From a virus, in the IMG/VR virus record IMGVR_UViG_3300028392_000038, positions 51,973-115,972 of that record: 64,000 nt of DNA. One strand, given 5' to 3'. Made by a program: the position numbers and the translations under genes. Positions within the stretch are counted from its first letter, which is position 1. Every line of letters starts with the position of its first letter. Below, piece by piece: positions 248 to 63,298 of the stretch. The notes below the pieces were generated by a model. The model worked only from the letters and a program-made list of their open reading frames with translations. It was not told the origin of the DNA and searched no databases.

Positions 248-835
248 TCAAATGTCATAAACACCATTAAATTGGTGAAAATCTTCAAATCCATTAAGAG
301 AATCTCTGTGTCTTTGCCAATTTTCCCACATATTTAGTATAGGAGGTTTGGGTGGTAAATACTCACTCATTTGTCTTATTCTTTGATAATACATCATATC
401 TACATCTTTGAAAATATTATTCATTCTTTCCAAGGCAAATTTATTAGCGTCTTTTTCTAACTCAATATAAGATTTGAAAAATTCTTCTTTATCTTTTCTA
501 AATATTTCAGCATGAACATCATGACCTTCTCTTCTATATTGCATAACATGACCCATTTCATGAAATATTAAAAATATAACCATTGGGAATGTTTGTTCTG
601 TTAAGAACTGACTATTCACTACAACCGATTCATCTTTAAAATAATATCCAAAGAAATTTCTATTTAATTGTCTAAATTCAATTTTTACATCAGGATATTT
701 AGAAAGTTCCTCCAAGAAAGAAGGAATAAGTGTAGGGTATTTATTGGATATCCTATTTAAATAGACTTCTAACTCTTGTGGTATTTGATTATTATTCTCA
801 TTTTCAAAGATTTTATATCTTTTTAAGTATTTCAT
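248..835 (-). CDS. HExxH zinc metallopeptidase-like protein with N-terminal capsid-targeting-like tag
   Basis: HEMGH followed by E-x-x-A (ELEKDAN); N-terminus MKYLKRYKIFE. Confidence 0.65.
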   Translation of the reverse strand: MKYLKRYKIFENENNNQIPQELEVYLNRISNKYPTLIPSFLEELSKYPDVKIEFRQLNRNFFGYYFKDESVVVNSQFLTEQTFPMVIFLIFHEMGHVMQYRREGHDVHAEIFRKDKEEFFKSYIELEKDANKFALERMNNIFKDVDMMYYQRIRQMSEYLPPKPPILNMWENWQRHRDSLNGFEDFHQFNGVYDI

Positions 836-876
836 ATTAGTATTAATATTTAGAATATATCATGATGTTACATGTT

Positions 877-1584
877 TTAAGAAATCCAGATAAAATGATC
901 ATTTGATTCTTTTTCAAATTTATAATCACCTAAACAATCAGTTATTGTTTTAATTAGTTTTTCTTCAGTAAAAATATCAGACAATTTAGATTCAAATATA
1001 TCTTTATCTATTAATCTGGACAATTCAATAGAAATATCAGTAACTATTTCAAATTTACTTTTAGATATTTCATCATAAAGATGATCAAACATATTGTATT
1101 TAATTACATTTATTTCTTCTAAAGAATAAATTATAACATTACAATCTTGTTTTTCCCAATCAGAAATTTTGAATATGTGTTTATCAGAATCAACTGAATC
1201 AATATGACCTAAATTAGTATCAAAATAATCAGCCAAAACTTTTTCCATTTTTTGAGTTGATTTTTCAATTCCCTTATATAAACATTCTTTCATAGAATGA
1301 ATTTTGAATTCACTTGATTCAAATACTTTAAAAGATTCAAAAGTAATAACTCCATCTTTTTCCATAGCCTCTCTATCATCTAAAATATCTTTTAGAATTA
1401 CATCAGCTCTTTTAATATCTTTCATCTTGTTCTTTTCTAAAAATCTACTAAATCTTTCAGAACCAGGTTGTAAATATCTTTTAAGATTTGATGGTCTTAT
1501 TTTATGTTGTTCAGTATACTCATCAAGTAATCCATTTATTATTTGATAATACTTATTAACATCTTCTCTATTATTAATCGACAT
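877..1584 (-). CDS. hypothetical phage protein
   Basis: 235-aa ORF; internal ITFESFKVFES resembles the shared tag. Confidence 0.7.
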   Translation of the reverse strand: MSINNREDVNKYYQIINGLLDEYTEQHKIRPSNLKRYLQPGSERFSRFLEKNKMKDIKRADVILKDILDDREAMEKDGVITFESFKVFESSEFKIHSMKECLYKGIEKSTQKMEKVLADYFDTNLGHIDSVDSDKHIFKISDWEKQDCNVIIYSLEEINVIKYNMFDHLYDEISKSKFEIVTDISIELSRLIDKDIFESKLSDIFTEEKLIKTITDCLGDYKFEKESNDHFIWIS

Positions 1585-1870
1585 CTTGATTGTTATCTTT
1601 TTTCAAATCAAATAAGCTAACAGCTTCTTGATCCTCTTTTCTATCTTCTATATTAATACCTCTAACTTCAGCAATTTCATACCATTCATCTTCAGGTAAT
1701 TCTTCAATTTCAGTTGAACCACATTTACAAGATTTAGATTCTTTGTTAAATTCTTTCCAAATATTATCACACTCATCACATGAATAGTAACTAGTTAAAA
1801 AGTTTTTAGTAGTAACTGGAACCGTCTGTGAAAAGTCAAATGTTTCAAATTTTTTCAAATGTTTCATCAT
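1574..1870 (-). CDS. small Zn-ribbon protein with N-terminal tag
   Basis: CDEC...CKCGS; N-terminus MKHLKKFETF; TAATATATA upstream. Confidence 0.65.
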   Translation of the reverse strand: MMKHLKKFETFDFSQTVPVTTKNFLTSYYSCDECDNIWKEFNKESKSCKCGSTEIEELPEDEWYEIAEVRGINIEDRKEDQEAVSLFDLKKDNNQDVD

Positions 1871-2006
1871 TGTGAATATTATGTTTCATCTATATATTAA
1901 ATAATTTTTACTCTTTTTATTAAAAAACATTGGAAATTTTAAAACAAAGACATATATTTTTTATATATAATACTCAAATACAAAAAAAACAAAAAATAAA
2001 ATACCT

Positions 2007-2195
2007 ATGAAAAAAATCGCAATCGTATTATTCGCAGTAATCTCTTTAACATCTTGTGGTGGTGGAGAAGCTAAATGTGAAGGTAGTAACTGTGACTCAA
2101 CAGCAGTTGTAGCACCAGTAGCTGACTCTTTAGCTCCAGTAGCAGATACATTAGCAGTGGATACTACAGCAGTAGTTACTCCAACTGTTAAGTAA
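2007..2195 (+). CDS. small lipoprotein
   Basis: Signal peptide MKKIAIVLFAVISLTS-C (lipobox); Ala/Val/Pro/Thr-rich mature part with DST, DSL, DTL, DTT. Confidence 0.8.
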   Translation: MKKIAIVLFAVISLTSCGGGEAKCEGSNCDSTAVVAPVADSLAPVADTLAVDTTAVVTPTVK

Positions 2196-2220
2196 TTATT
2201 AACTACTTCCGAATGAAACT

Positions 2221-2249
2221 AAAAGAGAGAATTAAATTCTCTCTTTTTT
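2221..2249 (+). terminator. intrinsic terminator
   Basis: AAAAGAGAGAATT/AATTCTCTCTTTT inverted repeat with T-tract. Confidence 0.75.
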
Positions 2250-2287
2250 ATTTTTAAACTTATTCAAGTAAATTATAAATAATTAAT

Positions 2288-3961: not shown

Positions 3962-3983
3962 AAATAGAATTAATATATAGTTT

Positions 3984-5138
3984 ATGATACAGAATTTTAA
4001 TAATTTCATTAATGAGGAATTAAGAATAGATAAGTTAGATGATAAATCGCTTAATCAATTAAAGTTAAATTTAATGGATAGGTTATCAGAATATAGAACT
4101 TACATTCTTAATAACATAATTTATAATATGGCTACTAATAAAGTAGAGTATAAAGAATTTGAAAACATAGATATTGCAACTATATTAAGAGAACTTAATA
4201 ATGAATTCACAAATGAAGTTGTTCAAGATATGAACATAGAAACTTTTTTAAGAAAGTTAAATCAAATATTAGACCTTCAAAAAAGAAACACTAAAAGAAG
4301 AATAAGAGAAGAGTTTGATGAATATTATAATTCAATTGAACAAAGAGTTTCTAAAATATCTAGAGGTGAAGATGAAGAACATTTTGATGCGGTTGAAGGT
4401 GAAGACTCTTTAATAACTAGAAAACAATATGAAACTGAGAAGTTTGGACTACAAGTTGAATTGTTAAAATTACAAGAATGGGTAGTTAAAAATAAGAAAA
4501 AAGTGGCTATTGTATTTGAAGGAAGAGATGCTGCTGGTAAAGGATCTACTATTAAAAGATTTACAGAATACCTAAATCCAAGAGGATTTAAGATTGTAGC
4601 ACTTGGATTACCAACTGATGAAGAAAAGAAAAATTGGTTTGCGAGATATGAAAAATATATGCCTCAACCAGGTGAAATAGTTTTCTTTGACCGTTCTTGG
4701 CACAATCGATCAATTGTTGAGCCAGCGATGGGTTATTGTTCAGAAGAACAATATATTGACTTCATGAATAATGTAAATAAATGGGAGGATCACTTAGTGA
4801 AAGATGAAGATATTATCTTAATTAAGTTTTGGTTCTCTATCACTAAAGAAAAACAAGAGTTAAGATTTGATTTAAGAAAATCAAACCCATTAAAATATTG
4901 GAAGTTTTCTCCAAATGATGCTAAAGTAATTGATAAATGGGATATTATTGGTAAATATAAAAACCAAATGTTTAGTAAAAATTCAACACCTTTGTGTCCG
5001 TGGGTAATTATAAATAGTAACGATAAAAAGATAGGTAGATTAAATGCCATCAGATATGTACTGAGTGTTATTCCATATGATGGAAGAGATGAAAAATCTT
5101 GTGAATATTACCCAGAAGTTGTAAATATTTTAAAATAA
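3984..5138 (+). CDS. ppk2: polyphosphate kinase 2 with about 140-aa N-terminal extension
   Basis: FEGRDAAGKGSTIKR Walker A, LNPRG, FDRSWHNR, KYWKFSPND, PWVII. Confidence 0.93.
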   Translation: MIQNFNNFINEELRIDKLDDKSLNQLKLNLMDRLSEYRTYILNNIIYNMATNKVEYKEFENIDIATILRELNNEFTNEVVQDMNIETFLRKLNQILDLQKRNTKRRIREEFDEYYNSIEQRVSKISRGEDEEHFDAVEGEDSLITRKQYETEKFGLQVELLKLQEWVVKNKKKVAIVFEGRDAAGKGSTIKRFTEYLNPRGFKIVALGLPTDEEKKNWFARYEKYMPQPGEIVFFDRSWHNRSIVEPAMGYCSEEQYIDFMNNVNKWEDHLVKDEDIILIKFWFSITKEKQELRFDLRKSNPLKYWKFSPNDAKVIDKWDIIGKYKNQMFSKNSTPLCPWVIINSNDKKIGRLNAIRYVLSVIPYDGRDEKSCEYYPEVVNILK

Positions 5139-6095: not shown

Positions 6096-6680
6096 ATGAG
6101 TATTAAATCATTCGATTCATTTAATGAAAAAAAATGGATACAAGACGCGATTAAAAATCCAGGAGCATTGAAAAAGTCAATGGGTAAAGGTGAAGATGAG
6201 AAACTTACTAAAGCTGAAATAGAATCTGAGTTAAAAGAACTTAAAGCTAAAGATAAAGATCCTAAAAAACCAGGAGCTCAATTAGGTAAAAAAGATGCTA
6301 CTAAAAAAAGAAGATTAGAGTTAGCTAAAACCTTAAGATCATTCAAAGAACACCAAGAAACAGATAATTATATGTTCTTTGGTAATTTAGAAACTATGAA
6401 AAGATTAGTTGATGAGTTATTAGAAATGGATCATTCACAAATTGACTCTATCTTAAATGAACATGATTGGGCATCTGACCATATTTCAGTAGCTACTGAA
6501 AACCTAGAACAAGTATTTGATTTCTTAGCAGGACATAATTTACCAGATGGTGAAATGGAACATGAAATGGAAGAACATGAAGAAGAACACCACGAAGAAG
6601 AACACCACGAAGAAGAGGAAGAACACGAAGAGGAAGAAGAAAATGGTGGTTTAATGAAATTCGGAGAATTCGGATCTTAA
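6096..6680 (+). CDS. putative internal head protein with His/Glu-rich tail
   Basis: N-terminus MSIKSFDSFNE; KWIQDAIKNPGAL module; EHEEEHH repeats; C-terminus MKFGEFGS. Confidence 0.6.
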   Translation: MSIKSFDSFNEKKWIQDAIKNPGALKKSMGKGEDEKLTKAEIESELKELKAKDKDPKKPGAQLGKKDATKKRRLELAKTLRSFKEHQETDNYMFFGNLETMKRLVDELLEMDHSQIDSILNEHDWASDHISVATENLEQVFDFLAGHNLPDGEMEHEMEEHEEEHHEEEHHEEEEEHEEEEENGGLMKFGEFGS

Positions 6681-7375: not shown

Positions 7376-7786
7376 ATGGAAGAGCTGGATAGATTTTTAC
7401 ATTTCTTATTAGAGAATATAGATGATAGAAGAGTGCATATTTCTAAGAAAGTAAAATATGGGTTCCAACATTTCTATCTAACATTTAATATAGACCAGGT
7501 AGATAAAGATGGACAAAAGTTGTATCACAATAACATACTATCTATTACAATAGATAACAGAAATAATTGTATTGATATAGATTCAGAGATAAATGGTAAG
7601 TCTATTGTTATAGAAGATGAAGAGTTTGTTAGAAGGTGGTCTACTATCTTAGATGAATTTTTAAGTAGAGAGATTACTCAAAAGATATCTGGTATTATAG
7701 ATATAACTCTAAGCTCTTGTGAGAATAAGAATTTACACAGAGATTATAAAATGAAAAAAATATTTAAAGACGATGAATCTATATAA
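7376..7786 (+). CDS. hypothetical protein with C-terminal RDYKMKKIF tag variant
   Basis: 136-aa ORF overlapping the next gene. Confidence 0.65.
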   Translation: MEELDRFLHFLLENIDDRRVHISKKVKYGFQHFYLTFNIDQVDKDGQKLYHNNILSITIDNRNNCIDIDSEINGKSIVIEDEEFVRRWSTILDEFLSREITQKISGIIDITLSSCENKNLHRDYKMKKIFKDDESI

Positions 7787-8267
7787 TCAAGAAGAAGTAG
7801 ATAGAATTAATAAAGTTAAAGATACCAATGATAAATTAGAAGATTTCTTTAATGGAAAAAGAGGAGAGTGGAATAAAATTGTTGAACCACTTTTTAAAGT
7901 TCTCACTACCGATTTATCTAATCCTTCAAATTCTAAACACATATTAGAAGCTCAGTCTTTAGCTCTAACACATAGACAACAGATTAATGAACAGATTAAT
8001 TTCTTCTTAAATAAAAGAAGTAAGGAGACTACTAAGATTAAGAAATTAAGACAAGATAAGTTTGTATTTTATGCTACTGGATTTGGAATCAAAACAAACT
8101 TGGGTGAAAAAGGAATTCTTATTGACGGTCACTTAGCAGAAAATGATAGATCATTGGAACTAATAGAATCTTATATTGAATTCCTAAGAGATACTGTGAG
8201 AAATTTAGAAAGTTTATCTTATTCAATTAAGAATATGATTGAGTTATTGAATTACTTAGGTAAGTAA
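7773..8267 (+). CDS. UvsY-like recombination mediator
   Basis: Helical protein ending IEFLRDTVRNLESLSYSIKNMIE, like the UvsY C-terminus. Confidence 0.55.
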   Translation: MNLYNQEEVDRINKVKDTNDKLEDFFNGKRGEWNKIVEPLFKVLTTDLSNPSNSKHILEAQSLALTHRQQINEQINFFLNKRSKETTKIKKLRQDKFVFYATGFGIKTNLGEKGILIDGHLAENDRSLELIESYIEFLRDTVRNLESLSYSIKNMIELLNYLGK

Positions 8268-9394
8268 TGCTTAACTTCTATTCCAAGCTTTTTAAGTTCT
8301 TCATGTCCTTGGCAACAATCATCACAAAGTTCATCTTTACCATATGAACCAGGATAAACTAAATTCATGTATAATTTACCGTTGCAACGATCACAAGGAT
8401 CACATTCACCTGTTACAGAATGTAACATATAATCACCCTCACTTGGTAGGTTAGAAAGTAGTTTTTTCTTTTCATCTAAGAAACACATAGTATCAATAAA
8501 TGGATAATGTTTAAAGTCACCATCTAATTTAACAGTTACCTCACCAAAGACATCTTTGCCCTTATATACAAATAAAACATTGTTTTCAATATATGAGTTC
8601 ATTTTCTTTTTATATAGGAACCCATTATCTTCAGCGAATTTCTTAAATCTTAATTCATCAGAATCACGATTAACATAAACTCTGTCCATGAAATACTTAG
8701 CCTCACAAGGAGAACTTTTTAATTTCCAAACAATAGCTCTTCCGTGTATCATATCATCTTTATCTACATAAATAAGCAATTGAACCTTTGATTCATTTTC
8801 TGTATAAATATCAAATGTTTTCTTACTCTCATCCGACATACAAGATCCACCTAAACTACCAGATCTACTAAAGTATTTTTTCTCATTATAATATTTTGCA
8901 ATATCAGATCCTTTAACTAATTTGAATGACATAGAAGTATCTATTTTAGATGCTTTGAAAGCATTAACAAAGTTTTCTATATCTTTATCTTTAACATCAT
9001 CAAGATCACCACTATCATCATTGATTAAATCAACAAGATATTTAATTATCTTTCCAATTTTAACCTCGTTTCTACCTTTCATTGTATATGGTAGGGAAGC
9101 ATCATCATCCGGATCCCAATCTTCAGGAACCTTAGTATTCATTATAAATGATAACTTATCATTTGAATCAGTTAGATCAAAATAGTTTTGTTTAACATCA
9201 GAATCATCAAAATAATTCTGATCATCAATAATATCAATAATAGCTTGTGATATTTCACCTACTTTACCTTTTTCTTTTGAAAGGTTTTGTAACTTAAACA
9301 TGAAATCGGATGACCCATAAATTTCAGCTTCTAAAAGTAATAATAAATTACTCTTGAAACTCTCTAACAAAAAACTATTGTATTTCTTAATCAT
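8252..9394 (-). CDS. conserved phage protein (SCM / GRAxxW / MDRxY family) with N-terminal tag
   Basis: GSCMS, GRAIVWKL, FMDRVY, YPFIDT shared with 23219-25108; C-terminal CxxC pairs; N-terminus MIKKYNSFLLE. Confidence 0.7.
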   Translation of the reverse strand: MIKKYNSFLLESFKSNLLLLLEAEIYGSSDFMFKLQNLSKEKGKVGEISQAIIDIIDDQNYFDDSDVKQNYFDLTDSNDKLSFIMNTKVPEDWDPDDDASLPYTMKGRNEVKIGKIIKYLVDLINDDSGDLDDVKDKDIENFVNAFKASKIDTSMSFKLVKGSDIAKYYNEKKYFSRSGSLGGSCMSDESKKTFDIYTENESKVQLLIYVDKDDMIHGRAIVWKLKSSPCEAKYFMDRVYVNRDSDELRFKKFAEDNGFLYKKKMNSYIENNVLFVYKGKDVFGEVTVKLDGDFKHYPFIDTMCFLDEKKKLLSNLPSEGDYMLHSVTGECDPCDRCNGKLYMNLVYPGSYGKDELCDDCCQGHEELKKLGIEVKHYLPK

Positions 9395-9443
9395 ATAACT
9401 AAATAATTTTGATTACATATATATAAAAAATTAAATATCATAA

Positions 9444-11287: not shown

Positions 11288-11319
11288 AAAAACCCTCTGA
11301 TTAATCAGAGGGTTTTTTT
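11288..11319. terminator. bidirectional intrinsic terminator
   Basis: AAAAACCCTCTGATT/AATCAGAGGGTTTTT between convergent genes. Confidence 0.8.
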
Positions 11320-12091
11320 ATTTTTTAAAATTATCTGAATAGGTAAAATTAGCATTTAAGTTTGGCTGAGTAGGTTTATCATTCACAGGAACCTCAATAT
11401 TTTTAAATTTTTCTTCAACTTCTTTTGGGTTACAGTATTTAGGATTCATTACTACAACCATATCATAATTCAAAGGTTCTGAGCTTAATATCTTTGGGTC
11501 TCCTGTTTTTATCCAAATATAATCACTTTCTTTGAATAAATGTTGATATACACTTTTTTTAACTTCTGGACTAGACCCGCTCTCACTTACTATATATCCA
11601 ACATTTGGATCATCTAATAAAGCTCTATAAACTTTATAACCAAAATGCTCAATGTCTAATGTCGGTAGATTTTCACCTTTTGAACCTTCAAATCCTGTTT
11701 CTTGATTTGGTTCGTATTTTTGACCACCTGGTTTTTTCCCATGATACCAATGTATTTGATTTTTAGGAGTCAATATAATATAGTTCATATTCTTCCAAAC
11801 TTCCCAAGCAGTTGTATCAGCAGTCCATTCATACTTAGTGTATTGATTATCGCGGTTAGTCTCTAATCCTTTGTACCAGAATGATTGCATAGAACCAGGT
11901 TCACCCATTTTATGATCTTTCATTTTTTTCATAACACTGATACCTTCCTCGTCATTAAAAAATATATCAAAAGATTTTGCACCAGGTTCACTTACACCAC
12001 GTTTATCTTTTGATAACAAAACAGATACCTCCTTATATTTAGCTTCTGTAATTAATATAAATTGTTCATATAACTTTAAGTATTTCATCAC
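11318..12091 (-). CDS. hypothetical protein with N-terminal tag
   Basis: MMKYLKLYEQFILITE. Confidence 0.7.
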   Translation of the reverse strand: MMKYLKLYEQFILITEAKYKEVSVLLSKDKRGVSEPGAKSFDIFFNDEEGISVMKKMKDHKMGEPGSMQSFWYKGLETNRDNQYTKYEWTADTTAWEVWKNMNYIILTPKNQIHWYHGKKPGGQKYEPNQETGFEGSKGENLPTLDIEHFGYKVYRALLDDPNVGYIVSESGSSPEVKKSVYQHLFKESDYIWIKTGDPKILSSEPLNYDMVVVMNPKYCNPKEVEEKFKNIEVPVNDKPTQPNLNANFTYSDNFKK

Positions 12092-12480
12092 TACTTTTTC
12101 TTTTTTCTTGCCTTAGCAGCCTTCGCTTTAGTCCATAGGTTAGCATCTGCTTTTCTAGCACCACCAGCGCCAGTAATAAATGAATTTACTCTTCCAAAGG
12201 CCCATTGATGTTGAGCCACACCAGGTCTATGACCAGCGTTCCAAGCTTGCATTCCTTTAGCAAAAACTTTTCTTAAAATCCCCATAGGAATTCCAGATGC
12301 CTTTGATTTTTTACGAAGAGAAGCAGTAACTCCTGATTTTTTATTTTCATATAACTCATCGGTTTCATCTAAATCATCAACCATTTCATTTGTGAAATCA
12401 TTTGTTAATTCATAATCTTCGCTTTCAAGATAAACTGAAAAATCTTCAGTTAAATCTGTAAAATTCAATAAGTGTTTCAT
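12091..12480 (-). CDS. DUF5824-like virion-associated protein
   Basis: KKSKASGIPMGILRKVFAKGMQAWNAGHRPGVAQHQWAFGRVNSF; N-terminus MKHLLNFTDLTE. Confidence 0.6.
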   Translation of the reverse strand: MKHLLNFTDLTEDFSVYLESEDYELTNDFTNEMVDDLDETDELYENKKSGVTASLRKKSKASGIPMGILRKVFAKGMQAWNAGHRPGVAQHQWAFGRVNSFITGAGGARKADANLWTKAKAAKARKKKK

Positions 12481-12486: not shown

Positions 12487-13407
12487 TTAATCTTTTTTTC
12501 CAAACATTCTTTGGTAGGCTTTAGTTGCTGCGGACTTTTTAGTTTTAACTCTTTTCCCTTCACCACCTTTACCAGATGTGTAATCAGCATCCCAATCTTT
12601 TTTGTATTCTTTCTTGCCAACAAATCTATCAATTTCTTTTTTCATTTTACCTGGATTTTTAGTTAGATACTTACCAGGTATTTTACGACCCTTATATCTC
12701 TGTGACTTAACTCGTTCTTCTACAATCTCTTCATCTTCTTTCCAATTAAAATTTCTCCTTAAATAATTGAACGCCGTATCATAAGCATTTAAAACTTGCA
12801 TTGGCTCAGTTCCATATTTACTCATAATTTTATCACCAACTCTTATAACCTCTTTAATTACCCATTCTTTCCAAGACTTATCATCTTCTCCAAATAAAAT
12901 AGTATCAATTACTAAATCTATTGTTTCTTTATCAAACATGGAAAGATCTTTCTCCATATCTTCTATAATACCATCGGTATCTGCCGTGTTATCCATAACA
13001 CCAATTTTAGAAAAACTTACAATTCTTTTAATGACATCTTCAGCCTCTGATTCTTTTATAGAAGAACTATACTCACTTGATTCAGAAACACCTAATATCA
13101 TTTGAATATCTTTTTCAATCATATCTAACCCTTCATCAATTGATTCAACATCTTCTGTAAAATCTATAGTTTCACCAACTACTTTTGTTAGTATTAAATC
13201 ATCTATGTCAAACTCATATCTAATTGATAACTCACCTGTTGAAAAGTTAACTAGTAACTGATGGTCATTTTTATTTTCCCACTCATAGATAAAATTCTGA
13301 CCAGATGAAATACCTTCAACAAGGTCTTTTAATTCTTGCATTTTAACATCTATGATGCTATCATTCTCAACAAACTCTCTTATAAATTGATCCCACTTTT
13401 TTATCAT
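12487..13407 (-). CDS. multi-module protein with N-terminal tag and basic C-terminal module
   Basis: Probable start MIKKWDQFIRE at 13407, just after TAATATATA; ends KTKKSAATKAYQRMFG. Confidence 0.65.
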   Translation of the reverse strand: MIKKWDQFIREFVENDSIIDVKMQELKDLVEGISSGQNFIYEWENKNDHQLLVNFSTGELSIRYEFDIDDLILTKVVGETIDFTEDVESIDEGLDMIEKDIQMILGVSESSEYSSSIKESEAEDVIKRIVSFSKIGVMDNTADTDGIIEDMEKDLSMFDKETIDLVIDTILFGEDDKSWKEWVIKEVIRVGDKIMSKYGTEPMQVLNAYDTAFNYLRRNFNWKEDEEIVEERVKSQRYKGRKIPGKYLTKNPGKMKKEIDRFVGKKEYKKDWDADYTSGKGGEGKRVKTKKSAATKAYQRMFGKKD

Positions 13408-15820: not shown

Positions 15821-17131
15821 GGAGCATTTGCAACAAGCTACTTCATATTATATAATAATCACGTAGCAGGTACAATCACAGCACAAGGCCGTGACCTTAC
15901 CAAAACAATGGATAAGGTTAATGAAGACTATTGGTATAATCAATGGCAAAATGACCATGAACTTCACTATAAAATGGGTATTAAAAACATAACACCTATT
16001 TCAAAAGATGAACATGTTTCTATTTATGCTGATACAGATTCATTATTTGTTTCATTCAAACCAGCAGTAGATCATTGTGACTGGACCAATCTTATATTCA
16101 ATGATGATTATCTTAATTCAGTAGATAAAAAGTTCATCATCCTTTCTAAAGAACTTCCAAAATTCAACAATACTAATTGTGTAGGAACTGCGCATAATAT
16201 TAAAGAGTTTAGTGAACTATTAAACGCAGAACATGAGTTAGTTTTAATATGTGGTAACTTTGTTAAAGATAGAGATTTAGTAAAGATGATTAAATCTGGT
16301 TCTGTAAAGAATGAGATAAAATGGAATTGGTCTAATGAAATAGATTTCATACAAGGATTAGACCATTATAGATATGGTGGTTATTTTAAAAAGTGTTTAG
16401 AAGATTATGCTGGATCTTTTGGTGTAGAGAACAAAGAAGACTTTGAGTTAGAAAGAATATCAGAATCTATTATCAATATTGCTAAAAAGAAATACATTCA
16501 ACATATCTTATTTGAAGATGGTATTCCTTATGATAGATTAAGTTATATCTATCCTAAAGGTGTAGAACTTGTTAGGTCATCTACTCCAGCTTTTGCTAGA
16601 GATAAAATTGTTGGTATTGTTAAATATTTATTCACACATCCTGATACTTTTAATATTAAAGATTTACTAAAACTAGTTAAAGGACTAAGAAAAGAATTTG
16701 AATTGGCGGATATAGATGATATTTGTATGCAATCTTCTGTTTCTAACTATGAAATAAAAGTTCTTAATGATAAGTCATTGCCTTTAAACTTTATAAGTGG
16801 TGCTCACTTTGCGGTTAAGTCAGCAGCTCATCATAACTATCTTTTACTAAAGAGTAAAGAATATCAACAGAAATATGAGTTTATAAAATCAGGTAATAAG
16901 ATTAAATATTATTGTTGTAAAGATAAATCTATAACTGATATGTTTGCTTATACTCGTGGTTCTTTTCCGGTTGAGTTTGCTCCACCTATTGATTATGATG
17001 AACAGTTCTCTAAGTCTATCTTATCTCCTATCAATTCAATTATTGAACCATTAGGAATGCCTGAGATTACTAAAAGGTTGTCGGTGGTGATGGATATTTT
17101 CTCAGGTATGGGTGGAAAAGGAGCTTTTTAA
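15821..17131 (+). CDS. family B DNA polymerase C-terminal subunit, 3' segment (palm/thumb)
   Basis: Frame opens at GGA 15821: GAFATSYFILYNNHVAGTITAQGR, then YADTDS (motif C), AKKKY, KGVELVRSSTP. Confidence 0.9.
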   Translation, partial: GAFATSYFILYNNHVAGTITAQGRDLTKTMDKVNEDYWYNQWQNDHELHYKMGIKNITPISKDEHVSIYADTDSLFVSFKPAVDHCDWTNLIFNDDYLNSVDKKFIILSKELPKFNNTNCVGTAHNIKEFSELLNAEHELVLICGNFVKDRDLVKMIKSGSVKNEIKWNWSNEIDFIQGLDHYRYGGYFKKCLEDYAGSFGVENKEDFELERISESIINIAKKKYIQHILFEDGIPYDRLSYIYPKGVELVRSSTPAFARDKIVGIVKYLFTHPDTFNIKDLLKLVKGLRKEFELADIDDICMQSSVSNYEIKVLNDKSLPLNFISGAHFAVKSAAHHNYLLLKSKEYQQKYEFIKSGNKIKYYCCKDKSITDMFAYTRGSFPVEFAPPIDYDEQFSKSILSPINSIIEPLGMPEITKRLSVVMDIFSGMGGKGAF

Positions 17132-17934
17132 TCTTCTTTATAAACAAAGTTTTTATCCGGTATTAAATAATAATTAACTCCATTTTCATCTAATTGAGTT
17201 TTGATATCTTTTCCTTTGAAAATCCAATTACCTAGTTTTTTATTCACATCTGATATTAAAACTAAGTAGTGTGTTTTGATTTCTGTAAAATAACCGCTTA
17301 TATAAACTTTATAAAATTCACCTTCTTTATTAATAGAAGAAAGTGTTTTTGTTTGTATAGTGTATGTATTTCCTTTATAGTTAAAAGTACCATCAATACC
17401 AGCGATATCAACTTTATGAGAAGATGGTTTATCAATTGATATATCTGTTTTAAGTATTTGAGTTGCGAACTTAGAGAAAAATGTATTTGCTATTTCTTCT
17501 TGTGATTGACCTTTATCAGATGCTCCTTCTAAAGTTTTATAGATTCTCTCAAACCATTTCCCACCTGGTTCAAATAGTTTTAACTTATTAGTCTCAATCC
17601 AATCAATCATACTATCTGGTGTTGAAAATGTAGATCGCCCGTTATCAATTTCATTAGCTATCTTAATCATTTCCCAAAGTATAGCAATGTTCTTTTGAGC
17701 TTTTGTTAATAATTCAGCTCTAACTTCTCTTCCGTTACGGATTAGAATTTCATTACCACTGAAACTACCATAAATATCTCTTAATATTCTTTTAATAGCT
17801 AGTTCTTTTTTCTCTGCTTTTTCTTCAGTGAATAAGATAGGTTTACCCGCCATAAATAACTTAACTGGCTTATATGAAGCTTTGTACTTATCTTGGTAAG
17901 CCTCATTTATAAAATTTGAATACTTTTTAATCAT
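17128..17934 (-). CDS. tagged protein with possible PD-(D/E)XK nuclease C-domain
   Basis: N-terminus MIKKYSNFINE; VDIAGIDG...TIQTK. Confidence 0.5.
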   Translation of the reverse strand: MIKKYSNFINEAYQDKYKASYKPVKLFMAGKPILFTEEKAEKKELAIKRILRDIYGSFSGNEILIRNGREVRAELLTKAQKNIAILWEMIKIANEIDNGRSTFSTPDSMIDWIETNKLKLFEPGGKWFERIYKTLEGASDKGQSQEEIANTFFSKFATQILKTDISIDKPSSHKVDIAGIDGTFNYKGNTYTIQTKTLSSINKEGEFYKVYISGYFTEIKTHYLVLISDVNKKLGNWIFKGKDIKTQLDENGVNYYLIPDKNFVYKED

Positions 17935-25336: not shown

Positions 25337-25346
25337 AGGACTTTTT
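25318..25346. terminator. bidirectional intrinsic terminator
   Basis: AAAAAGTCCTCT...AGAGGACTTTTT. Confidence 0.75.
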
Positions 25347-34918: not shown

Positions 34919-34957
34919 AAAATTATATATTAATAAAAAGTTCCTCTTATAATAATT

Positions 34958-36967: not shown

Positions 36968-36986
36968 AGTGTTCTATATATTAATT

Positions 36987-40055: not shown

Positions 40056-40079
40056 TAATTATATATAATTTTAGATAGG

Positions 40080-40574: not shown

Positions 40575-40591
40575 GTTATAAAATTATTTTA

Positions 40592-44967: not shown

Positions 44968-46596
44968 GTGATAATTAAGAAATTTAACGATTGGTCGCCT
45001 GTTAATGAAGAGGCATCTCCTAGACTCCCAGTTAGTGAAGAGTTCTGGACTAGAAAAGGCAAAAGTAAGAAAGTTGCCTTATATACTCATGATGATATGG
45101 ATGGAATATTCTGTGCTATTGAGATGAAAAAGTGGTTACTTAACAAAGGTTTCACAATTGAAAAATACGGTATTCTTAATTATTCAGAAGGTTGGAAATA
45201 TACAACTTTAGACCCTACCCTAATTAATATAGTATTAGACTTTGCAAATATGCCTGGTGATGAAAGAGATGAACAGATTGATTATTATTTAGATCATCAT
45301 GGTTTATTCTCAGCAGAAGATTTAGAAAAATATAAAAGTTCTCCAGTTCAAAAGAAAAAAACAAACTCAGCTTATGAAGCAGTTTGTCAAGCACTGGGAG
45401 TACCACAAGATGAATTAACTTTATCAGTTATTGATATGATTGACTCAGCTAGATATCAAGATTATGGTGTTAGTTGGCAAAGACTACTTGACTTTAATTT
45501 ATCAGATATTAAGAAGTCAGACAAAACAAGATTAGAATTTGGAGCGGCTTTCAATCAATTCTTAAAAAGAGGAGATACTAAGACTTTGATATCTGTTATT
45601 CACAATTGTAAAGACGCTTCTATCTATTCAATATTCAATACAATGAAACAAGTTTATGGTGAGCATAATGTTCATACTGGTTATAGAAAAGGACAACCTA
45701 AAGATTTTGAAGAAGATTCAAGATGGAGATTGGCTACAATGCAACAAAGAACTAGAGGAAAAGGAACTAAAAAGATTTATAACACTCAAGAAGAATTCTT
45801 AAAGGATTTTCAATTTGGTGGATTAATAAGATTAGATGGTTATGTTTTAATTGGTGAATTAGCTTTCATACCAACAGGAACTTGGGCAAATGCTTTAAGA
45901 GCAAGAACAATCATTGAAAAGGATTTCAATGATGGTTTAATATCTAAAGAACCTAAATTTATATTATTACAATATGGTGGAACTCTACAAGTATGTTCTT
46001 ATAAAAAGATAGCTGAAACAGAAGAACTTCCTACATTAAAAGGTGGTGGATTTGTTGATGATTTAGGTAAGTATATGACCGGTCTACTAGATAATTTCAA
46101 ATTACATTTAGGATATTATGATCCAGATACATCAATTGGGCAAGATGAAATAACTGTTTCTGGTGGACACGGTGGTATTGGTTCTATCTCTAATGTATTT
46201 GGAACTTGTGATGTTGATCCATATAAAGGATTTAGATTTATTGATATTTTCAAAAATAAGATTATCTCAGATTTATCAGGGGTTAAATTAAATATGGGGT
46301 TAAAATGGAGTGAACCATCAGAAGGAAAACAAACTGAACCAGCTGTTGATAACAAAGTTATACCAACTGAAAATGTAACTAAACTTGATAAATATGGTAA
46401 AGCTATTAAGACCGAAGAAAGCTATGAATATCAATTAGTTAATAAAGAAGGTAGACCAACTACAGTTTCTAAAGAAGATTTTATAAAAGCAGGATCTACT
46501 AAAGCAATGAAAACTGATAGAAAATCTTTAATGACTATTGATCACAATAATAAGAAAGTGATTGCTAAGTTTGAAGGTTTTAAGTATAAAGGTTAA
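44968..46596 (+). CDS. DHH-family phosphoesterase with N- and C-terminal tags
   Basis: THDDMDG, VLDF, LDHH, SGGHGG; N-terminus MIIKKFNDW..VNE; C-terminus AKFEGFKYKG. Confidence 0.75.
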   Translation: MIIKKFNDWSPVNEEASPRLPVSEEFWTRKGKSKKVALYTHDDMDGIFCAIEMKKWLLNKGFTIEKYGILNYSEGWKYTTLDPTLINIVLDFANMPGDERDEQIDYYLDHHGLFSAEDLEKYKSSPVQKKKTNSAYEAVCQALGVPQDELTLSVIDMIDSARYQDYGVSWQRLLDFNLSDIKKSDKTRLEFGAAFNQFLKRGDTKTLISVIHNCKDASIYSIFNTMKQVYGEHNVHTGYRKGQPKDFEEDSRWRLATMQQRTRGKGTKKIYNTQEEFLKDFQFGGLIRLDGYVLIGELAFIPTGTWANALRARTIIEKDFNDGLISKEPKFILLQYGGTLQVCSYKKIAETEELPTLKGGGFVDDLGKYMTGLLDNFKLHLGYYDPDTSIGQDEITVSGGHGGIGSISNVFGTCDVDPYKGFRFIDIFKNKIISDLSGVKLNMGLKWSEPSEGKQTEPAVDNKVIPTENVTKLDKYGKAIKTEESYEYQLVNKEGRPTTVSKEDFIKAGSTKAMKTDRKSLMTIDHNNKKVIAKFEGFKYKG

Positions 46597-47718: not shown

Positions 47719-48312
47719 ATGAAATACATTAAAATCTTTGAAGACTTCAATCCTAATCTAATTAACACAGTTGAAGAATTAACAAATAAACTCAAAGAAT
47801 ATTCTATCCCGGTTGAAGAGTGGGGAACCGGAGAAGCAAAAAATGTTGAGCATCTTTTAGATGAAATAAGAGGTGAAGAATGTAATTTAGAAGATAGAGG
47901 TGGATATTTGATTAGAAGTATCGAATTTGTTGGAGTTAGAATATATCATAAAGATAAAGATAATGTAACCTGGGTCTTAAAAGAAGATAAACAAGAGTTT
48001 AAAGATGGTAGGGTTAGAAGAAGAAATATGCCATCATCTGTTTCTGAAAAGATGAAATTTGGAGAAGATTCACTAATATCAGCAATAAGAGGAATAAAAG
48101 AAGAGTTGGGTATTAATGTAGAAGGACATCAATTAATAAAAATGAGAGACTTATTTTATAATGGCGGGTCTCAATCATATCCTGGTTTAAGAACAAGATA
48201 TAAAGGACATCAATTTACTTGCTTACTAGATACTGATCAATTTAATATGAATGGTTATATAGAAGTTCAAAAAGATAAAAGCACATTCTTTAAATGGTTT
48301 AAGAAAGATTAA
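47719..48312 (+). CDS. Nudix-like hydrolase with N-terminal tag
   Basis: EKMKFGEDSLISAIRGIKEELGI (degenerate Nudix box); MKYIKIFEDF. Confidence 0.6.
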   Translation: MKYIKIFEDFNPNLINTVEELTNKLKEYSIPVEEWGTGEAKNVEHLLDEIRGEECNLEDRGGYLIRSIEFVGVRIYHKDKDNVTWVLKEDKQEFKDGRVRRRNMPSSVSEKMKFGEDSLISAIRGIKEELGINVEGHQLIKMRDLFYNGGSQSYPGLRTRYKGHQFTCLLDTDQFNMNGYIEVQKDKSTFFKWFKKD

Positions 48313-51970: not shown

Positions 51971-52399
51971 ATGAAATACGTTAAAACATTCGAACAGTAC
52001 TCAGTTGTAAATGAGGAAGAAATACTTGGACTTGGTAAGCTTTTCAATAAATCCACTGCTACTGAGGTAGACTTATCAAAAACTGATGATGTTAAATTAG
52101 CAGAAGCTGTTAAAAAATATTTAGACTCTACTTATGAGGGTGGTAAAATTACCAAATCTAGTAGATGGGAAATTGTTAAAAGCAATAGAAAATTAATCAC
52201 CGAATCTGGTGTACCTGCTGAGTTAGTTGATAAAGTACTTGCTGTAATAGCAATGATTCAAAAAGGATTACCTTTATTTTCATTCATTCCCGAAGTTGCT
52301 GAAAAAAATCAAAAAGGACATTTATTAACATATAATAAAGAAACTAATATGTTAAAATTTACCGCAGCTTCAGAAAAAACTGTTAATCCAAACGGATAA
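51971..52399 (+). CDS. hypothetical protein with N-terminal tag
   Basis: MKYVKTFEQYSVVNEE. Confidence 0.7.
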   Translation: MKYVKTFEQYSVVNEEEILGLGKLFNKSTATEVDLSKTDDVKLAEAVKKYLDSTYEGGKITKSSRWEIVKSNRKLITESGVPAELVDKVLAVIAMIQKGLPLFSFIPEVAEKNQKGHLLTYNKETNMLKFTAASEKTVNPNG

Positions 52400-59149: not shown

Positions 59150-59983
59150 ATGAGGTTAGTAAAAACATATAATTCTTTTAATGAAGAAAAAATAGTTAAT
59201 GATATAATTAACTATATTGATTATTCAATTAATGAAGGAGTAGACATAGAATCTATCTGGAACAAGGCTATTGATAAGATTAAGAATCTTTCAAAAGAAG
59301 CTAAAAGTAAAGTAATTAAATATGTTTTAGTTTCTCTATTGGCATTTAACACAGTTGTTAATGTTTCTAATTTAGTTAAAGGATCAAATGCTGATCCAGA
59401 AACAAAAGAAATCGCAGCTTCTATTTTATCTCAAAAGGATATTGAAAAAGCAGACTCTATAAAAGTTGAAGAAAGTAAATGGAAAAAAGGATATGAGTTT
59501 ACACTTTCTCAAAAAGGATGGGATCATATTAAAACAGAAGAAGGTGATCCAAGACATCCAGGAGAACCTGTTTTAAAAGCCTATAAATTAGGAGACGGTA
59601 AGATAACCGTTGGTTGGGGACATGCTGAGTCAGTTAGAAAATCTAAATTCAAAGTTGGGCAAAAGATAACAAAAAGTGATGCGGATGATCTACTTAAAAT
59701 GGATTTAGCCAATGCTTCTGATGGTGTTAGAAGAATATTTAAAGATTGGGAAGAAAAAGGATTAGATGTTAAAATTAATCAAGATATGTTTGATGCCTTA
59801 GTTTCTATATCTTTCAATACTGGTATTAATGGATTAAGAAAATCAATGATGATACAGGATATTAAAAAGGGTAAATTTGAAGAGGCTGGTGAGAAGATTA
59901 AAACACTCAATGTTAGTAAGAAATTTCCAGGACTTCAAGATAGAAGAGAAAAAGAAAGTGAAATGTTTTTAGCATCATTATGA
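59150..59983 (+). CDS. GH24 (T4-type) lysozyme with N-terminal tag and extension
   Basis: IKTEEG...AYKLGDGKITVGWGH...QDMFDALVSISFNTG...GLQDRREKE. Confidence 0.85.
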   Translation: MRLVKTYNSFNEEKIVNDIINYIDYSINEGVDIESIWNKAIDKIKNLSKEAKSKVIKYVLVSLLAFNTVVNVSNLVKGSNADPETKEIAASILSQKDIEKADSIKVEESKWKKGYEFTLSQKGWDHIKTEEGDPRHPGEPVLKAYKLGDGKITVGWGHAESVRKSKFKVGQKITKSDADDLLKMDLANASDGVRRIFKDWEEKGLDVKINQDMFDALVSISFNTGINGLRKSMMIQDIKKGKFEEAGEKIKTLNVSKKFPGLQDRREKESEMFLASL

Positions 59984-60972
59984 AATACTTAAAGACATAT
60001 AAACTATTTGAATCAATTGATAAGATAGCTGGAGTTTGGGACACCAATGAGAAATTTGAAGATGGTGGTGATTTCAAAATCAAATTTAGGGTAAGTGATA
60101 TCATCGAACTAGCTAAAGATAAACCGGTTGAAGAAGTAGATCCAAAATCTATAAACTATGATTTTAGTGGAAGAGAAGAGGACAAATTAGAAACAAAAGA
60201 AAGAGTTTTTCTTGCAGACTTATCTTACCCAATAATAGTTGTACAGAATGAACAAGGTAGAATATTTGCAATGTTAGATGGTACACATAGGTTAGAAAAG
60301 GCTTTAATTTTAGGACTGGATAAAATACAAGTTAAAGTAATGAGTAAAGAAGAATTGGTGCAATTTAAAGTTGATGATTTTGATAAATTAATTGAGATGA
60401 TTAAAGTTCCTATTAAAGTTGGTGATACTTTATTAGGTGGTCGTTTTAAAAATAAGAAAACTGTTGTTAAAAAGATTGGTAAGAATGATAAAGGAGATAT
60501 TACTATAAATGATAAACCACTTCTTAAATACAGAATTGTAAAGGAGTCTAATTCTTATGATAGATTAAAAGAAGATGTTGATTCTTATTTAGCACATCTT
60601 ACAGATGATTTCAAAATAGAAATTGCAGGAAGTCAACTTATTGGTAAACCTATTAGAAATAACTACTACATTAGAATTTGGAAACAAAAAGACACAAGTA
60701 AACCATATGCGTTTAGTAACTGTGTTGAATTTAAATGGTCTGATATAGAAGAAGAAGTTTTAAGATTTATTTCTATAATAGAAGAAAGTTGGGGAATTGA
60801 CTACTTATATAAAATTTATCAACTTAATTCTTCTGATTGGTTTAAGGGCAACCAAGCTCATGAACATAGAACTATGTTTACTAAGAACGAATTATCAAAT
60901 ATAAATGGTAATTCAGAGTTAAAATCCTTTGTAATTGGTTTATTCAAAGAAGTGGAAAAAATAACCGATTAA
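59980..60972 (+). CDS. ParB/Srx-like domain multi-module protein with N-terminal tag
   Basis: ADLSYPIIVV...MLDGTHRLEKA; MKYLKTYKLFES. Confidence 0.65.
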   Translation: MKYLKTYKLFESIDKIAGVWDTNEKFEDGGDFKIKFRVSDIIELAKDKPVEEVDPKSINYDFSGREEDKLETKERVFLADLSYPIIVVQNEQGRIFAMLDGTHRLEKALILGLDKIQVKVMSKEELVQFKVDDFDKLIEMIKVPIKVGDTLLGGRFKNKKTVVKKIGKNDKGDITINDKPLLKYRIVKESNSYDRLKEDVDSYLAHLTDDFKIEIAGSQLIGKPIRNNYYIRIWKQKDTSKPYAFSNCVEFKWSDIEEEVLRFISIIEESWGIDYLYKIYQLNSSDWFKGNQAHEHRTMFTKNELSNINGNSELKSFVIGLFKEVEKITD

Positions 60973-60987: not shown

Positions 60988-61338
60988 ATGAAACACTTAC
61001 AATCAATAAATGAATATCAAAGAACTGTTGGATTTAGATATTCTGACCCAACGGAAAAATTTAATATCAAAGTTTATATAAATGGTGAATTAACTGAAGA
61101 AGAAATTAAAAACACTTTAAATGATATTGATGTTATTGTGTTCGGTGATATTCAATTTGAAGAAACTCCAAATGATTATATACCTGAAGAAGAGGATGAT
61201 GTAAATGTTATATCATTTGATATTAGTGTTTATAATGAAAAAGAAATAGAAAGAATAATGGAAGATTTTACTAAAATTATTTATCTAGACTATAAAATTA
61301 AAACACTGGATGTTTCAATAAATCCTAAAAGAAATTAA
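60988..61338 (+). CDS. hypothetical protein with N-terminal tag
   Basis: MKHLQSINEY; TAATATATA 4 nt upstream. Confidence 0.7.
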   Translation: MKHLQSINEYQRTVGFRYSDPTEKFNIKVYINGELTEEEIKNTLNDIDVIVFGDIQFEETPNDYIPEEEDDVNVISFDISVYNEKEIERIMEDFTKIIYLDYKIKTLDVSINPKRN

Positions 61339-61388: not shown

Positions 61389-61916
61389 ATGAAAATATCA
61401 ATTGGTTGTGACCACGCTGCTTGGGAACTTAAAGAAAAAGTAAAGCAGTATCTTTCCACAAAATCTGGAATTGAAGTAAATGACAAGGGATGTTACTCAT
61501 CTGAAAGATGTGATTACCCTGACTTCGGACATGCTGTTGCAAAAGATGTAACAGAAAATAAATGCGATTTTGGTATTCTAATGTGTGGTTCCGGAAACGG
61601 AATTAATATGACTGCTAATAAATGGTCTGGTGTCCGTTCAGCTCTTTGTTGGAATTCAGAAATTGCTAATATGGCTCGCCTACATAATGATGCTAATATA
61701 TTAACCTTACCAGGTAGATATATTTCAGAAGAAGAAGCATTCAAATGTGTTGATGAATTTATTAATACAGGATTTGAAGGTGGTAGACATACAGACAGAA
61801 TAAATAAAATTCCAAAATATTTTAAAAATATTTTTAGAAGTACCAAAACTCACCTAAATGAGGTTTGGAGAGGATTGCAAGATATCCAAGATAAAGGATT
61901 AGGCCCAAAGTCATAA
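61389..61916 (+). CDS. rpiB: ribose-5-phosphate isomerase B with C-terminal extension
   Basis: IGCDHA, DYPD, CGSGNG, ANK..GVR.A, ARLHNDANIL, FEGGRH. Confidence 0.95.
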   Translation: MKISIGCDHAAWELKEKVKQYLSTKSGIEVNDKGCYSSERCDYPDFGHAVAKDVTENKCDFGILMCGSGNGINMTANKWSGVRSALCWNSEIANMARLHNDANILTLPGRYISEEEAFKCVDEFINTGFEGGRHTDRINKIPKYFKNIFRSTKTHLNEVWRGLQDIQDKGLGPKS

Positions 61917-61959
61917 CCTAAACTTAATAAATACTTTACAAAAAAATAGCCTTAATTTT

Positions 61960-62184
61960 ATGATACCAGTAAATTTTAGAGAACTCACGAACAAAGTGCT
62001 TTGTGGAGAAAAGATTCATGTTGATAATGAAAACATTATAAATGATTTCGCTGATTATATAAAAGCGTATTGTGCTGACTTAAAATGTACAGAACATGAT
62101 GTTATTTTTGATGATAAATTATATGAAAGAGTTTATGGCTTATTTGATAATATTATTTTGAAAAGAAAGTATCAAATAGCTTAA
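61960..62184 (+). CDS. small hypothetical protein
   Basis: 74-aa ORF. Confidence 0.55.
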   Translation: MIPVNFRELTNKVLCGEKIHVDNENIINDFADYIKAYCADLKCTEHDVIFDDKLYERVYGLFDNIILKRKYQIA

Positions 62185-62228
62185 ATCTAAAAATTAATTT
62201 TAATATATACTTAAAATTAAATCTATTA

Positions 62229-62573
62229 ATGGAAAAGTTTAGTGCTATAAATGAAAGAAAGATTTTCATAACAGATCCAAGTATAATTAAAAAATATGCT
62301 TCTTTTATTATCCCTTTTTATATAACAGGTGAAATAACTTGTGATACAAAATTAATAGATGAATATCTTGAGATGAATAAAACTTCACAAAGAGTTAAAA
62401 GTGCAAATTTAATTTGTGACTTAGAAGTTCTTGCTGTTAAACAAATCTTAGATAATCCACTTACACCAAGAGGATACGAACAATTAAGACAAGATATAGA
62501 AAAAGGTTGTATCAAATTAGAAAGATTCTTAAAGAAGAAACTACAACAAAAAATGGGTAACCAAATTATATAA
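62229..62573 (+). CDS. hypothetical protein with N-terminal tag
   Basis: MEKFSAINE; TAATATATA upstream. Confidence 0.65.
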   Translation: MEKFSAINERKIFITDPSIIKKYASFIIPFYITGEITCDTKLIDEYLEMNKTSQRVKSANLICDLEVLAVKQILDNPLTPRGYEQLRQDIEKGCIKLERFLKKKLQQKMGNQII

Positions 62574-62578
62574 TTATT

Positions 62579-62603
62579 AACACCACTTTTAAGTGGTGTT
62601 TTT
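62579..62603 (+). terminator. intrinsic terminator
   Basis: AACACCACTT-TT-AAGTGGTGTT with T-tract. Confidence 0.75.
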
Positions 62604-62629
62604 GTTTTAAATAGTTTAATATATACTAA

Positions 62630-63298
62630 ATGAATCACATCAAACCATATAGGCTATTTGAATCTGTTGAGAAAGAATCAATTGGACTAATAGATAAATT
62701 TAAAAGAGATTATGGTACTGATTTAGATATGAAGTTGAAACCATATCAAATTGAAATAATAAATAAAGCTTTCTCACACTTTGATAAAAAATTCATTAAG
62801 AATAGAATACAAAAGATAAAATTAAAGGATTTAGGTGGTGTTCATGGTAAGTGGACTGATACAGAGAAGAAACATCAAATGACACTTAATCCAACTATCT
62901 TTGATTTTAAAAGACAGTTTGATAGTTATGTTCCTTATAAAATATTTGTAATAGTTCATGAAATTGGTCATTGTATAGACCATATTGAAAAAATATCATA
63001 TTCTAAAAAGTGGCAAGCAATATCAGGCTGGAAAAAGTGTGATATCAATGATAGAATACCAGAGGGTTATGATAGGTACATCGAGAAAAGAAAAGGTAGA
63101 GAAGAAGCGGGTCCTAAAAAGTCAGATTGGGTTTATAAAGAAGGATCTAATTTTTGTAGAAAATATTCTTCAAGAAATCCAAGAGAAGATTTTGCGGATT
63201 CATTTGCATTTGCGGTATTCAAAGACTATGATAAGTTTGAAGGAGAAGGTGGAAAAGAAAAGTTACAAATTATAAAAGAATTACTTTCAAAAATTTAA
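62630..63298 (+). CDS. zincin metallopeptidase-like protein with N-terminal tag
   Basis: VHEIGH...YSSRNPREDFADSF; MNHIKPYRLFES. Confidence 0.7.
   Translation: MNHIKPYRLFESVEKESIGLIDKFKRDYGTDLDMKLKPYQIEIINKAFSHFDKKFIKNRIQKIKLKDLGGVHGKWTDTEKKHQMTLNPTIFDFKRQFDSYVPYKIFVIVHEIGHCIDHIEKISYSKKWQAISGWKKCDINDRIPEGYDRYIEKRKGREEAGPKKSDWVYKEGSNFCRKYSSRNPREDFADSFAFAVFKDYDKFEGEGGKEKLQIIKELLSKI

Follow-up and report, generated by a model that had tools for sequence, protein, structure and literature searches.

Why should so many otherwise unrelated proteins encoded on one piece of viral DNA begin with the same short N-terminal tag, exemplified by MKYLKRYKIFE and MIKKYSNFINE? The question is raised by a stretch of 64,000 nucleotides (nt), here called the window, which is the final 64 kb of a 115,972-bp viral contig with a G+C content (GC) of 30% (IMG/VR record IMGVR_UViG_3300028392_000038); coordinates given as "contig" refer to the whole record, and all others refer to the window. 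About 28 of the contig's open reading frames (ORFs) are tagged, 24 or 25 of them inside the window, amounting to roughly one-fifth of the fragment's proteins. An earlier note on this DNA had listed 24 such N-termini, and every one is present in the sequence, either where it had been placed or no more than 6 nt away. The tag is real and widespread in one clade of huge phages; by analogy with T4, it is probably a greatly expanded capsid-targeting and processing leader, and the presence of its bearers in virions, their binding to a core, the removal of the tag, and the retention and injection of the proteins are steps that we infer from that analogy only.

Enrichment and distribution of the tag

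A strict pattern (^M.{3,6}[FYW]..[FYW].{0,3}E) matched 15 of the 132 contig ORFs, compared with 1.9 in shuffled N-termini (standard deviation 1.4, maximum 8, 2000 shuffles) and 1.8 in internal windows used as a control. Chance or composition as the source of the tag is ruled out by these shuffles.

The head module of the contig lies upstream of the window and encodes a T4-type portal (Pfam Portal_T4, 2e-55) and a gp23-type major capsid protein (Pfam, 4e-29). This capsid protein shows 71% identity to its counterpart in LR756502 (642 kb) and 69% to that in LR745206 (635 kb), both from uncultured huge phages, and 50% to those of the 735-kb genomes LR756501 and LR756503; by these identities, the contig is a piece of a Mahaphage-type huge phage. 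The 385-kb record IMGVR_UViG_3300032288_004964, whose protease-scaffold protein is 98% identical to the contig's copy, is probably close to the full genome of this phage or of a sister phage. A megablast search with the baseplate region gave no match among GenBank phages.

The tag occurs in relatives as well. The strict pattern was found in 99 of the 949 ORFs of the complete LR756502 genome (14.6 expected), a position matrix recovered 108 N-termini there where an internal-Met control predicted 4, and an unsupervised mixture model resolved one sharp class, with the consensus MKHLKKYNEFE, that took in 130 of the 949 N-termini at a threshold with 0.8 expected. A model trained on LR756502 alone places the listed ORFs at the top of the contig's ranking. 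A sample of a 735-kb genome contained 9 tagged ORFs among 49, against 1.6 expected. The region of LR756502 from 11 to 90 kb is a dense array of tagged genes that holds about 40 of the 99 strict matches in 80 kb, including many near-identical MK[HY]LKxYKIFES starts on unrelated bodies.

Searched as a degenerate DNA pattern, the strict consensus occurred at 56 places in IMG/VR, all with 24 to 32% GC except one at 42%, and 81 of the 495 ORFs neighboring these places were tagged too. A search of 596 Gb of prokaryote genomes gave just one match to the same pattern, and the contig concerned is phage-like; the tag is thus essentially confined to viral DNA. A cellular sorting signal is ruled out by this single prokaryote match, itself phage-like. 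The match (JAIOYD010000005.1, 1826-2853, -) belongs to a metagenome-assembled genome (MAG) labelled Rickettsiaceae; this 18-kb contig (29% GC), on which two tagged ORFs lie side by side, is probably a piece of phage DNA that was binned with a bacterium. No description of the tag was found, among the matches listed, in literature mentioning Mahaphages, in a comparative jumbo-phage study, or in papers on capsid-targeting sequences.

A peptide signal on unrelated proteins

Synonymous codon use within the tag is that of gene bodies genome-wide, and orthologs keep the tag with conservative replacements (Y/F/W, I/L/V, K/R); selection therefore acts on the peptide. A nucleotide-level signal is ruled out by the freely varying synonymous codons. 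For the commoner flavor of the tag (class 1, M-K-[HY]-L-K-x-[YF]-K-[IL]-F-E-[S]), a stringent pattern gave 27 N-terminal matches and 2 internal ones, both after a Met, and with this pattern no internal tags that would be a sign of polyproteins were found.

When their first 15 residues were removed, the 28 contig bearers fell into 27 families (BLASTP, 1e-5), and 183 loosely defined bearers of LR756502 fell into 174; as had been noted earlier, therefore, the tag sits on unrelated proteins. Pfam identified PPK2, phage lysozyme, NFACT-R, DUF5824, DUF6576, and a weak SprT-like peptidase among the contig bearers, most of which had no match. The PPK2, lysozyme, and peptidase labels that the earlier note had attached to window proteins are thereby upheld, the last as the weak SprT-like match, whereas its HAD, Nudix, ParB, and DHH labels were not found by Pfam in window proteins; NUDIX and DHH are present among the tagged proteins of LR756502. 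The 108 bearers searched in that genome further include PPK2, the head of a CCA-adding/poly(A) polymerase, T4-type RNA ligase, 2H/LigT/Acb1-like and SET domains, several methyltransferases, HNH and GIY-YIG domains, a glycosyltransferase, and a PQ-loop protein. Each family is represented once in this set, apart from the methyltransferase families and DUF6576, which have two bearers each. Replication genes were said to lack the tag, and PolB and the UvsW-like helicase halves are indeed untagged, as are other enzyme genes.

Resemblance to the T4 capsid-targeting sequence

The published leader of T4 IPIII, the capsid-targeting sequence (CTS), is MKTYQEFIAE. Mutagenesis has assigned its residues 4 and 7 to targeting and its residues 8 and 10 to processing, and Asp at position 10 stops cutting with targeting unaffected (PMC9026906). 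The second flavor of the tag (class 2, M-I-K-K-[YFW]-x-x-[FY]-[ILV]-x-E; 35 seeds) has the four T4 determinants at the same spacing, one residue farther from the Met. The T4 CTS scores 9.8 bits on the class 2 matrix, all from the four determinant columns, and no ORF reaches this score in 50 kb of T4 or in the samples of PTm1, Lak-A1, and LR756500. Like the CTS of IPII and IPIII (Mullaney & Black 1996; PMC9026906), the tag comprises 10 to 11 residues at the extreme N terminus of unrelated bodies, with aromatics at i and i+3 followed directly by I/L-x-E; unlike the CTS, it is one residue longer and has a second, commoner flavor (MK[HY]LKx[YF]K[IL]FE) that is laid out otherwise but has the same end. 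The predicted cut site has Glu at P1 in 81 of 83 tags and I/L/F/V at P3 in 73 of 83, followed by S/E/A/N at P1', and the tag Glu lies at position 8 to 13; the corresponding sites in the T4 record are LIE9 (gp21), LTE65 (gp23), and LRE10 (gp24).

The likeness to T4 extends to the gp21-family protease, T4-type portal, and gp23-type capsid protein encoded in one genome and to the late-type promoter element common to tagged and head genes. T4 differs in having a handful of bearers, compared with about 28 on 116 kb here and about 130 in the complete relative, and in its cargo of small basic proteins, which here consists mostly of enzymes; the protease here is fused to an extension of about 430 residues, and the present system is known from genes alone. 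The polymorphic ip loci of T-even phages, cited in section 3.1 of PMC9026906, resemble the tagged set in that variable, exchangeable cargo with CTS-like leaders shares the leader only, and differ in comprising a few genes at one place rather than genome-wide arrays.

Head protease and putative scaffold

The head maturation protease forms the first 170 or so residues of a 704-residue protein encoded at contig 3586-5700 in the head module (phrog_207, 6e-30); its match to Pfam Peptidase_S77 is weak (18.6 bits, under the cut-off). By tblastn, this N-terminal domain matched annotated gp21 of S-PM2 (T4-like cyanophages) and of Campylobacter T4-like phages at about 1e-13, and pairwise BLASTP with T4 gp21 (9e-6) placed GEFDHP and VSSR opposite the catalytic residues H85 and S140 of T4 gp21. 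A PDB sequence search with the whole protease gave nothing useful. The N terminus of the protease itself holds two such Glu sites (MKPVLIVE↓NSTTSLIRE↓S, the arrow marking the predicted cut here and below), and in the capsid protein, the N-terminal stretch KWSPVLE is T4-like and a clade-conserved [IM]-[NH]-E-N (here I-N-E-N) lies near residue 45. The homolog of the 704-residue protein in the cultured Tenacibaculum phage PTm1, a distant relative with the same head-module layout, is annotated "prohead core scaffolding protein and protease", and the extension of the protease probably represents the scaffolding core. The protease is encoded by four of five large tag-bearing contigs, at 77 to 98% identity.

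The proteases of the gp21-related family all cut after Glu, and those of giant phages favor a small P3 residue and long propeptides (PMC5694885). The ejection and inner-body proteins of phiKZ, 201phi2-1, and SPN3US are thus comparable to the present set in depending on a related Glu-cutting protease family, and many head-internal proteins of those phages are delivered to the host (PMC5694885), as may by analogy be the case here. Their sites are of the form A/S/G-x-E, with propeptides mostly longer than 100 residues (PMC5694885), whereas here P3 is I/L/F/V and the leader has 8 to 13 residues; these features place the predicted system under the T4 rule, not the phiKZ rule. The injected polyvalent proteins of phages and conjugative elements offer a second comparison: they bring ready-made enzymes of counter-defense type along with the DNA (PMC7824862), a mode of delivery that might apply here by analogy, and the tagged set of LR756502 matches polyvalent-type content in its NUDIX, 2H/Acb1-like, DHH, RNA ligase, and methyltransferase domains. 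Polyvalent proteins are single giant multidomain proteins (PMC7824862), in contrast to the separate, individually tagged proteins found here.

Two further genes of the head module adjoin the capsid gene. Directly 3' of it, contig 7583-7999 (+) encodes a tagged 138-residue protein that is an NFACT-R (RqcH-type ribosome-rescue) RNA-binding domain (Pfam, 4e-15), the LR756502 ortholog of which was called with an N terminus 100 residues longer. Just past the capsid gene, contig 8035-9384 (+) encodes a 449-residue peptidase T-like (M20 tripeptidase) protein (phrog_4191, 6e-65; PDB tripeptidase 3rza, 2e-6; TIGR01883, 2e-9); we speculate that it might clear peptides freed by head maturation.

Association with a late promoter element

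The earlier note had placed most tagged genes behind the element that precedes the baseplate genes, and the association holds statistically: of the 20 strictly tagged contig ORFs, 13 have T[AT]ATATATA no more than 60 nt upstream, as do 30 of the 112 others (p=0.0015), and in LR756502 this element precedes 63 of 127 tagged and 134 of 822 untagged ORFs (p=3e-15). The odds ratio for its enrichment before tagged genes is about 5. Portal, baseplate hub, wedge, and fiber genes also follow this element; in the window, the untagged baseplate genes (gp5-like hub and gp25-like wedge; 33314..42619, -) each lie behind the TTAATATATA late element of the tagged genes. Tagged genes without an element of their own follow another tagged or late gene, and host-type elements (TAnnTTTG) precede small untagged genes. 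Judged from the promoter element alone, the bearers would be produced when proheads assemble.

Tagged genes often stand back to back with a divergent gene, as at 17934-17966, 9394-9444, 29149-29173, and 25108-25130; the spacers of 20 to 50 nt shared by such pairs contain TATATATA-type elements readable on both strands.

Proposed role and alternative explanations

In the mechanism that we propose, the tagged proteins would be made late in infection alongside the head proteins, and the tag would bind them to the core that scaffolds the prohead during assembly, this core probably being the long C-terminal part of the 704-residue protease-scaffold protein. The gp21-family prohead protease would then cut past the Glu at about position 11 (I/L/F-x-E↓S/E/N/A), and the mature enzymes would stay in the head with the DNA, probably to be delivered to the next host.

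Proteins that meet an (I/L)-x-E protease should avoid internal [IL]-x-E. In a first set consisting of the contig and LR756502, the observed/expected ratio of [IL]-x-E was 0.88 in tagged bodies and 1.11 in untagged proteins (permutation p from 5e-5 to about 1e-4), whereas [IL]-x-D was not depleted (1.30 and 1.17, respectively); when hydrophobic class, acid, and spacing were varied in 20 combinations, the strongest difference and the only strong depletion were those of [IL]-x-E. As a signature of exposure to the protease, this avoidance is suggestive only.

Most computational tests fit the earlier note's reading of the tag as CTS-like, the avoidance of [IL]-x-E being the part that replicated weakly, and several observations weigh against it. 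An independent set of IMG/VR loci and the 735-kb sample showed no raw depletion of [IL]-x-E (ratio of 0.97); deduplication brought it to 0.91 (p=0.16), a weak effect in the original direction, and p=0.04 was reached by the E-versus-D contrast alone. The aromatics of class 1, at positions 7 and 10, overlap the cut site and do not share the T4 spacing. Modelled as a helix, class 2 has a hydrophobic moment of 0.61 and the T4 CTS one of 0.44, but the class 1 consensus has one of 0.19, so that the commoner flavor (MKHLKxYKIFE) is not amphipathic in the model; the evidence for an amphipathic helix is equivocal. No tag was found in 40- to 50-kb samples of PTm1 (50 kb), Lak-A1, and LR756500, relatives with the same protease family, and the tag clade has no cultured member and is known from its genes. 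The LR756502 tagged set includes odd cargo, namely HNH and GIY-YIG proteins (homing-endonuclease type), a glycosyltransferase, and a PQ-loop membrane protein. Finally, the roughly 130 tagged proteins of that genome, 14% of its proteome, are far above any known packaged set.

The rival that survives best, although we consider it unlikely, keeps the bearers out of the capsid altogether and makes the tag a leader or recognition peptide that serves a different partner, which might be a modifying enzyme, a chaperone, a zymogen-activating protease of the cytoplasm, or a late assembly or localization factor. The number and variety of bearers suit a general handle for late proteins better than they suit cargo, and the weakly replicated avoidance of [IL]-x-E and the PepT-like M20 peptidase in the head module likewise favor this explanation. 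It has to contend, however, with a tag that ends in the type of cut site of the gp21 family, which the phage encodes, that reproduces four T4 CTS determinants in class 2, and that is tied to the promoter class of virion genes; the only partner examined and found is the prohead protease, no candidate partner enzyme having been identified and no systematic search for co-occurrence having been made.

We give far less credence to the idea that what the N-termini have in common is a preference at the level of nucleic acid or translation initiation in an AT-rich, Shine-Dalgarno-poor system, or a nascent-peptide effect, and does not address the finished protein. A GC of 30% does make K, Y, F, I, N, and L common at N-termini, and a Lys at position 2 is widely preferred in translation, which favors this idea; yet composition-matched shuffles gave about 2 matches where 15 were observed, synonymous codons vary freely while replacements are conservative at the amino acid level, the tag is missing from the early and replication genes of this genome, and two bearers start with GTG. 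That the bearers form one diverged paralogous family with a best-kept N terminus is hardly credible, for all the dense tagged arrays (as at 11-90 kb of LR756502) and the few small paralog groups that exist: the unrelated tag-less bodies rule it out, as BLASTP at 1e-5, once the first 15 residues are cut, finds no relation for 27 of the 28 contig bearers or for 174 of the 183 in LR756502, and the Pfam domains (PPK2, lysozyme, NFACT-R, NUDIX, RNA ligase, methyltransferases, and SET) are unrelated.

A T4-type leader that targets its bearers to the capsid and is processed there is, to our minds, the likeliest of these explanations. A stronger version, in which this megaphage clade pre-loads its capsid with more than 100 enzymes by means of 11-residue tags and these enzymes act before phage gene expression, has in our estimate not quite an even chance. 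The same tentative standing applies to the injected proteome that it proposes, made up of RNA-repair enzymes, enzymes that degrade nucleotide signals, methyltransferases, lysozyme, and PPK2.

If the tagged proteins are packaged, they would constitute the largest known ready-made protein cargo of any bacterial virus and would help explain the enormous gene content of huge phages as a means of immediate takeover and counter-defense; the tag would then provide a function-independent label, "delivered with the DNA", for hundreds of uncharacterized metagenome proteins. If the capsid is pre-loaded in this way, the tag would be a programmable protein-packaging address for very large capsids. Should the tag have another meaning, a short peptide carried by 14% of a proteome would nonetheless mark a phage-wide sorting or processing system. 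The tag also marks true start codons, including GTG, and flags late genes.

Tagged genes of the window

Four clear tags lie upstream of the window, at contig 7583, 9386, 14098 (-), and 15540 (-). Within the window, and with scores from the LR756502-trained model, the top score (21 bits) belongs to MKYLKRYKIFE↓N (248..835, -), the ORF with the weak SprT-like metallopeptidase match. The ORF at 1574..1870 (-), scored with the same model, begins M-MKHLKKFETF, has a late element 29 to 32 nt upstream, and reads MMKH, so that its start may be one codon on, at 1867. The PPK2 protein (MIQNFNNFINE↓E; 3984..5138, +) has its domain from residue 145 only, and its LR756502 ortholog keeps the tag as MINNFIKFINEE; the next tagged ORF (MSIKSFDSFNE↓K; 6096..6680, +) has the ortholog MENIKSFDSFNEK. 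A weak, possible case absent from the earlier list is MEELDRFLHFLLE↓N (7376..7786, +). MIKKYNSFLLE↓S (8252..9394, -) is a paralog of the 629-residue protein MRYLSDYLDYILE↓T (23219..25108, -), for which a protein-atlas look-up returned viral hypothetical proteins only.

MIKKWDQFIRE↓F (12487..13407, -; ortholog MIKKWGDFIREF) comes first in a series of three tagged genes that share a single late element. Nearby are MKHLLNFTDLTE↓D (12091..12480, -), a DUF5824 protein by Pfam, and MKYLKLYE↓QF (11318..12088, -), scored with the LR756502-trained model, for which 12091 is a GTG one codon ahead of the ATG at 12088. In the class 2 comparison, MIKKYSNFINE↓A (17128..17934, -) comes closest to the T4 CTS logic, Y-x-x-F-I-x-E. 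The DUF6576 protein (Pfam) at 18594..19070 (+) reads (MI)MKHLMRYEGY; its ortholog begins at the Met of MKHLMRYEGY, which corresponds to 18600 here, two codons on. It is followed by MIKKYNAFVE↓G (19121..19690, +), read from the translation, as is the tag of the 629-residue protein, and by MIKRFNQYISE↓N (25345..26457, -; ortholog MDILRFDQFIRES).

Two of the listed starts are corrected to GTG. These are (M)KYLKKYKIFE↓S (28637..29149, -; 19.9 bits) and (M)IIKKFNDWSPVNE↓E (44968..46596, +; LR756502-trained model), the latter with an LDHHG motif and no Pfam match; the tag reveals the true GTG starts of both genes, which ATG-only calling truncates. The list also has weak entries without the aromatic pair: MKKFSKLITE↓S (29173..29838, +) scores just 1.4 bits, MEKFSAINE↓R (62229..62573, +) is under the threshold, and MKHLQSINE↓Y (60988..61338, +), at 10.2 bits, is partly tagged. 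MKHLKKFFE↓N (44564..44956, +) is backed by its ortholog and the LR756502-trained model, MKYIKIFE↓DF (47719..48312, +) by its ortholog, and MKYVKTFE↓QY (51971..52399, +) by the model. Toward the right end are MRLVKTYNSFNE↓E (59150..59983, +), with a phage lysozyme domain (Pfam) from residue 142, MKYLKTYKLFE↓S (59980..60972, +; 19.8 bits), and MNHIKPYRLFE↓S (62630..63298, +; 16.7 bits).

A motif of small untagged proteins

Seven small untagged proteins share a C-terminal motif, R/K-[DE]-x-K-[IL]-x-K-I-[LIVM]-x. Five are encoded in the window (9838-10188, 14279-14692, 55945-56166, 56166-56504, and 56969-57364), and two are encoded at contig 12777-12998 and 50362-51039; several of these genes lie behind host-type TAnnTTTG promoter elements.

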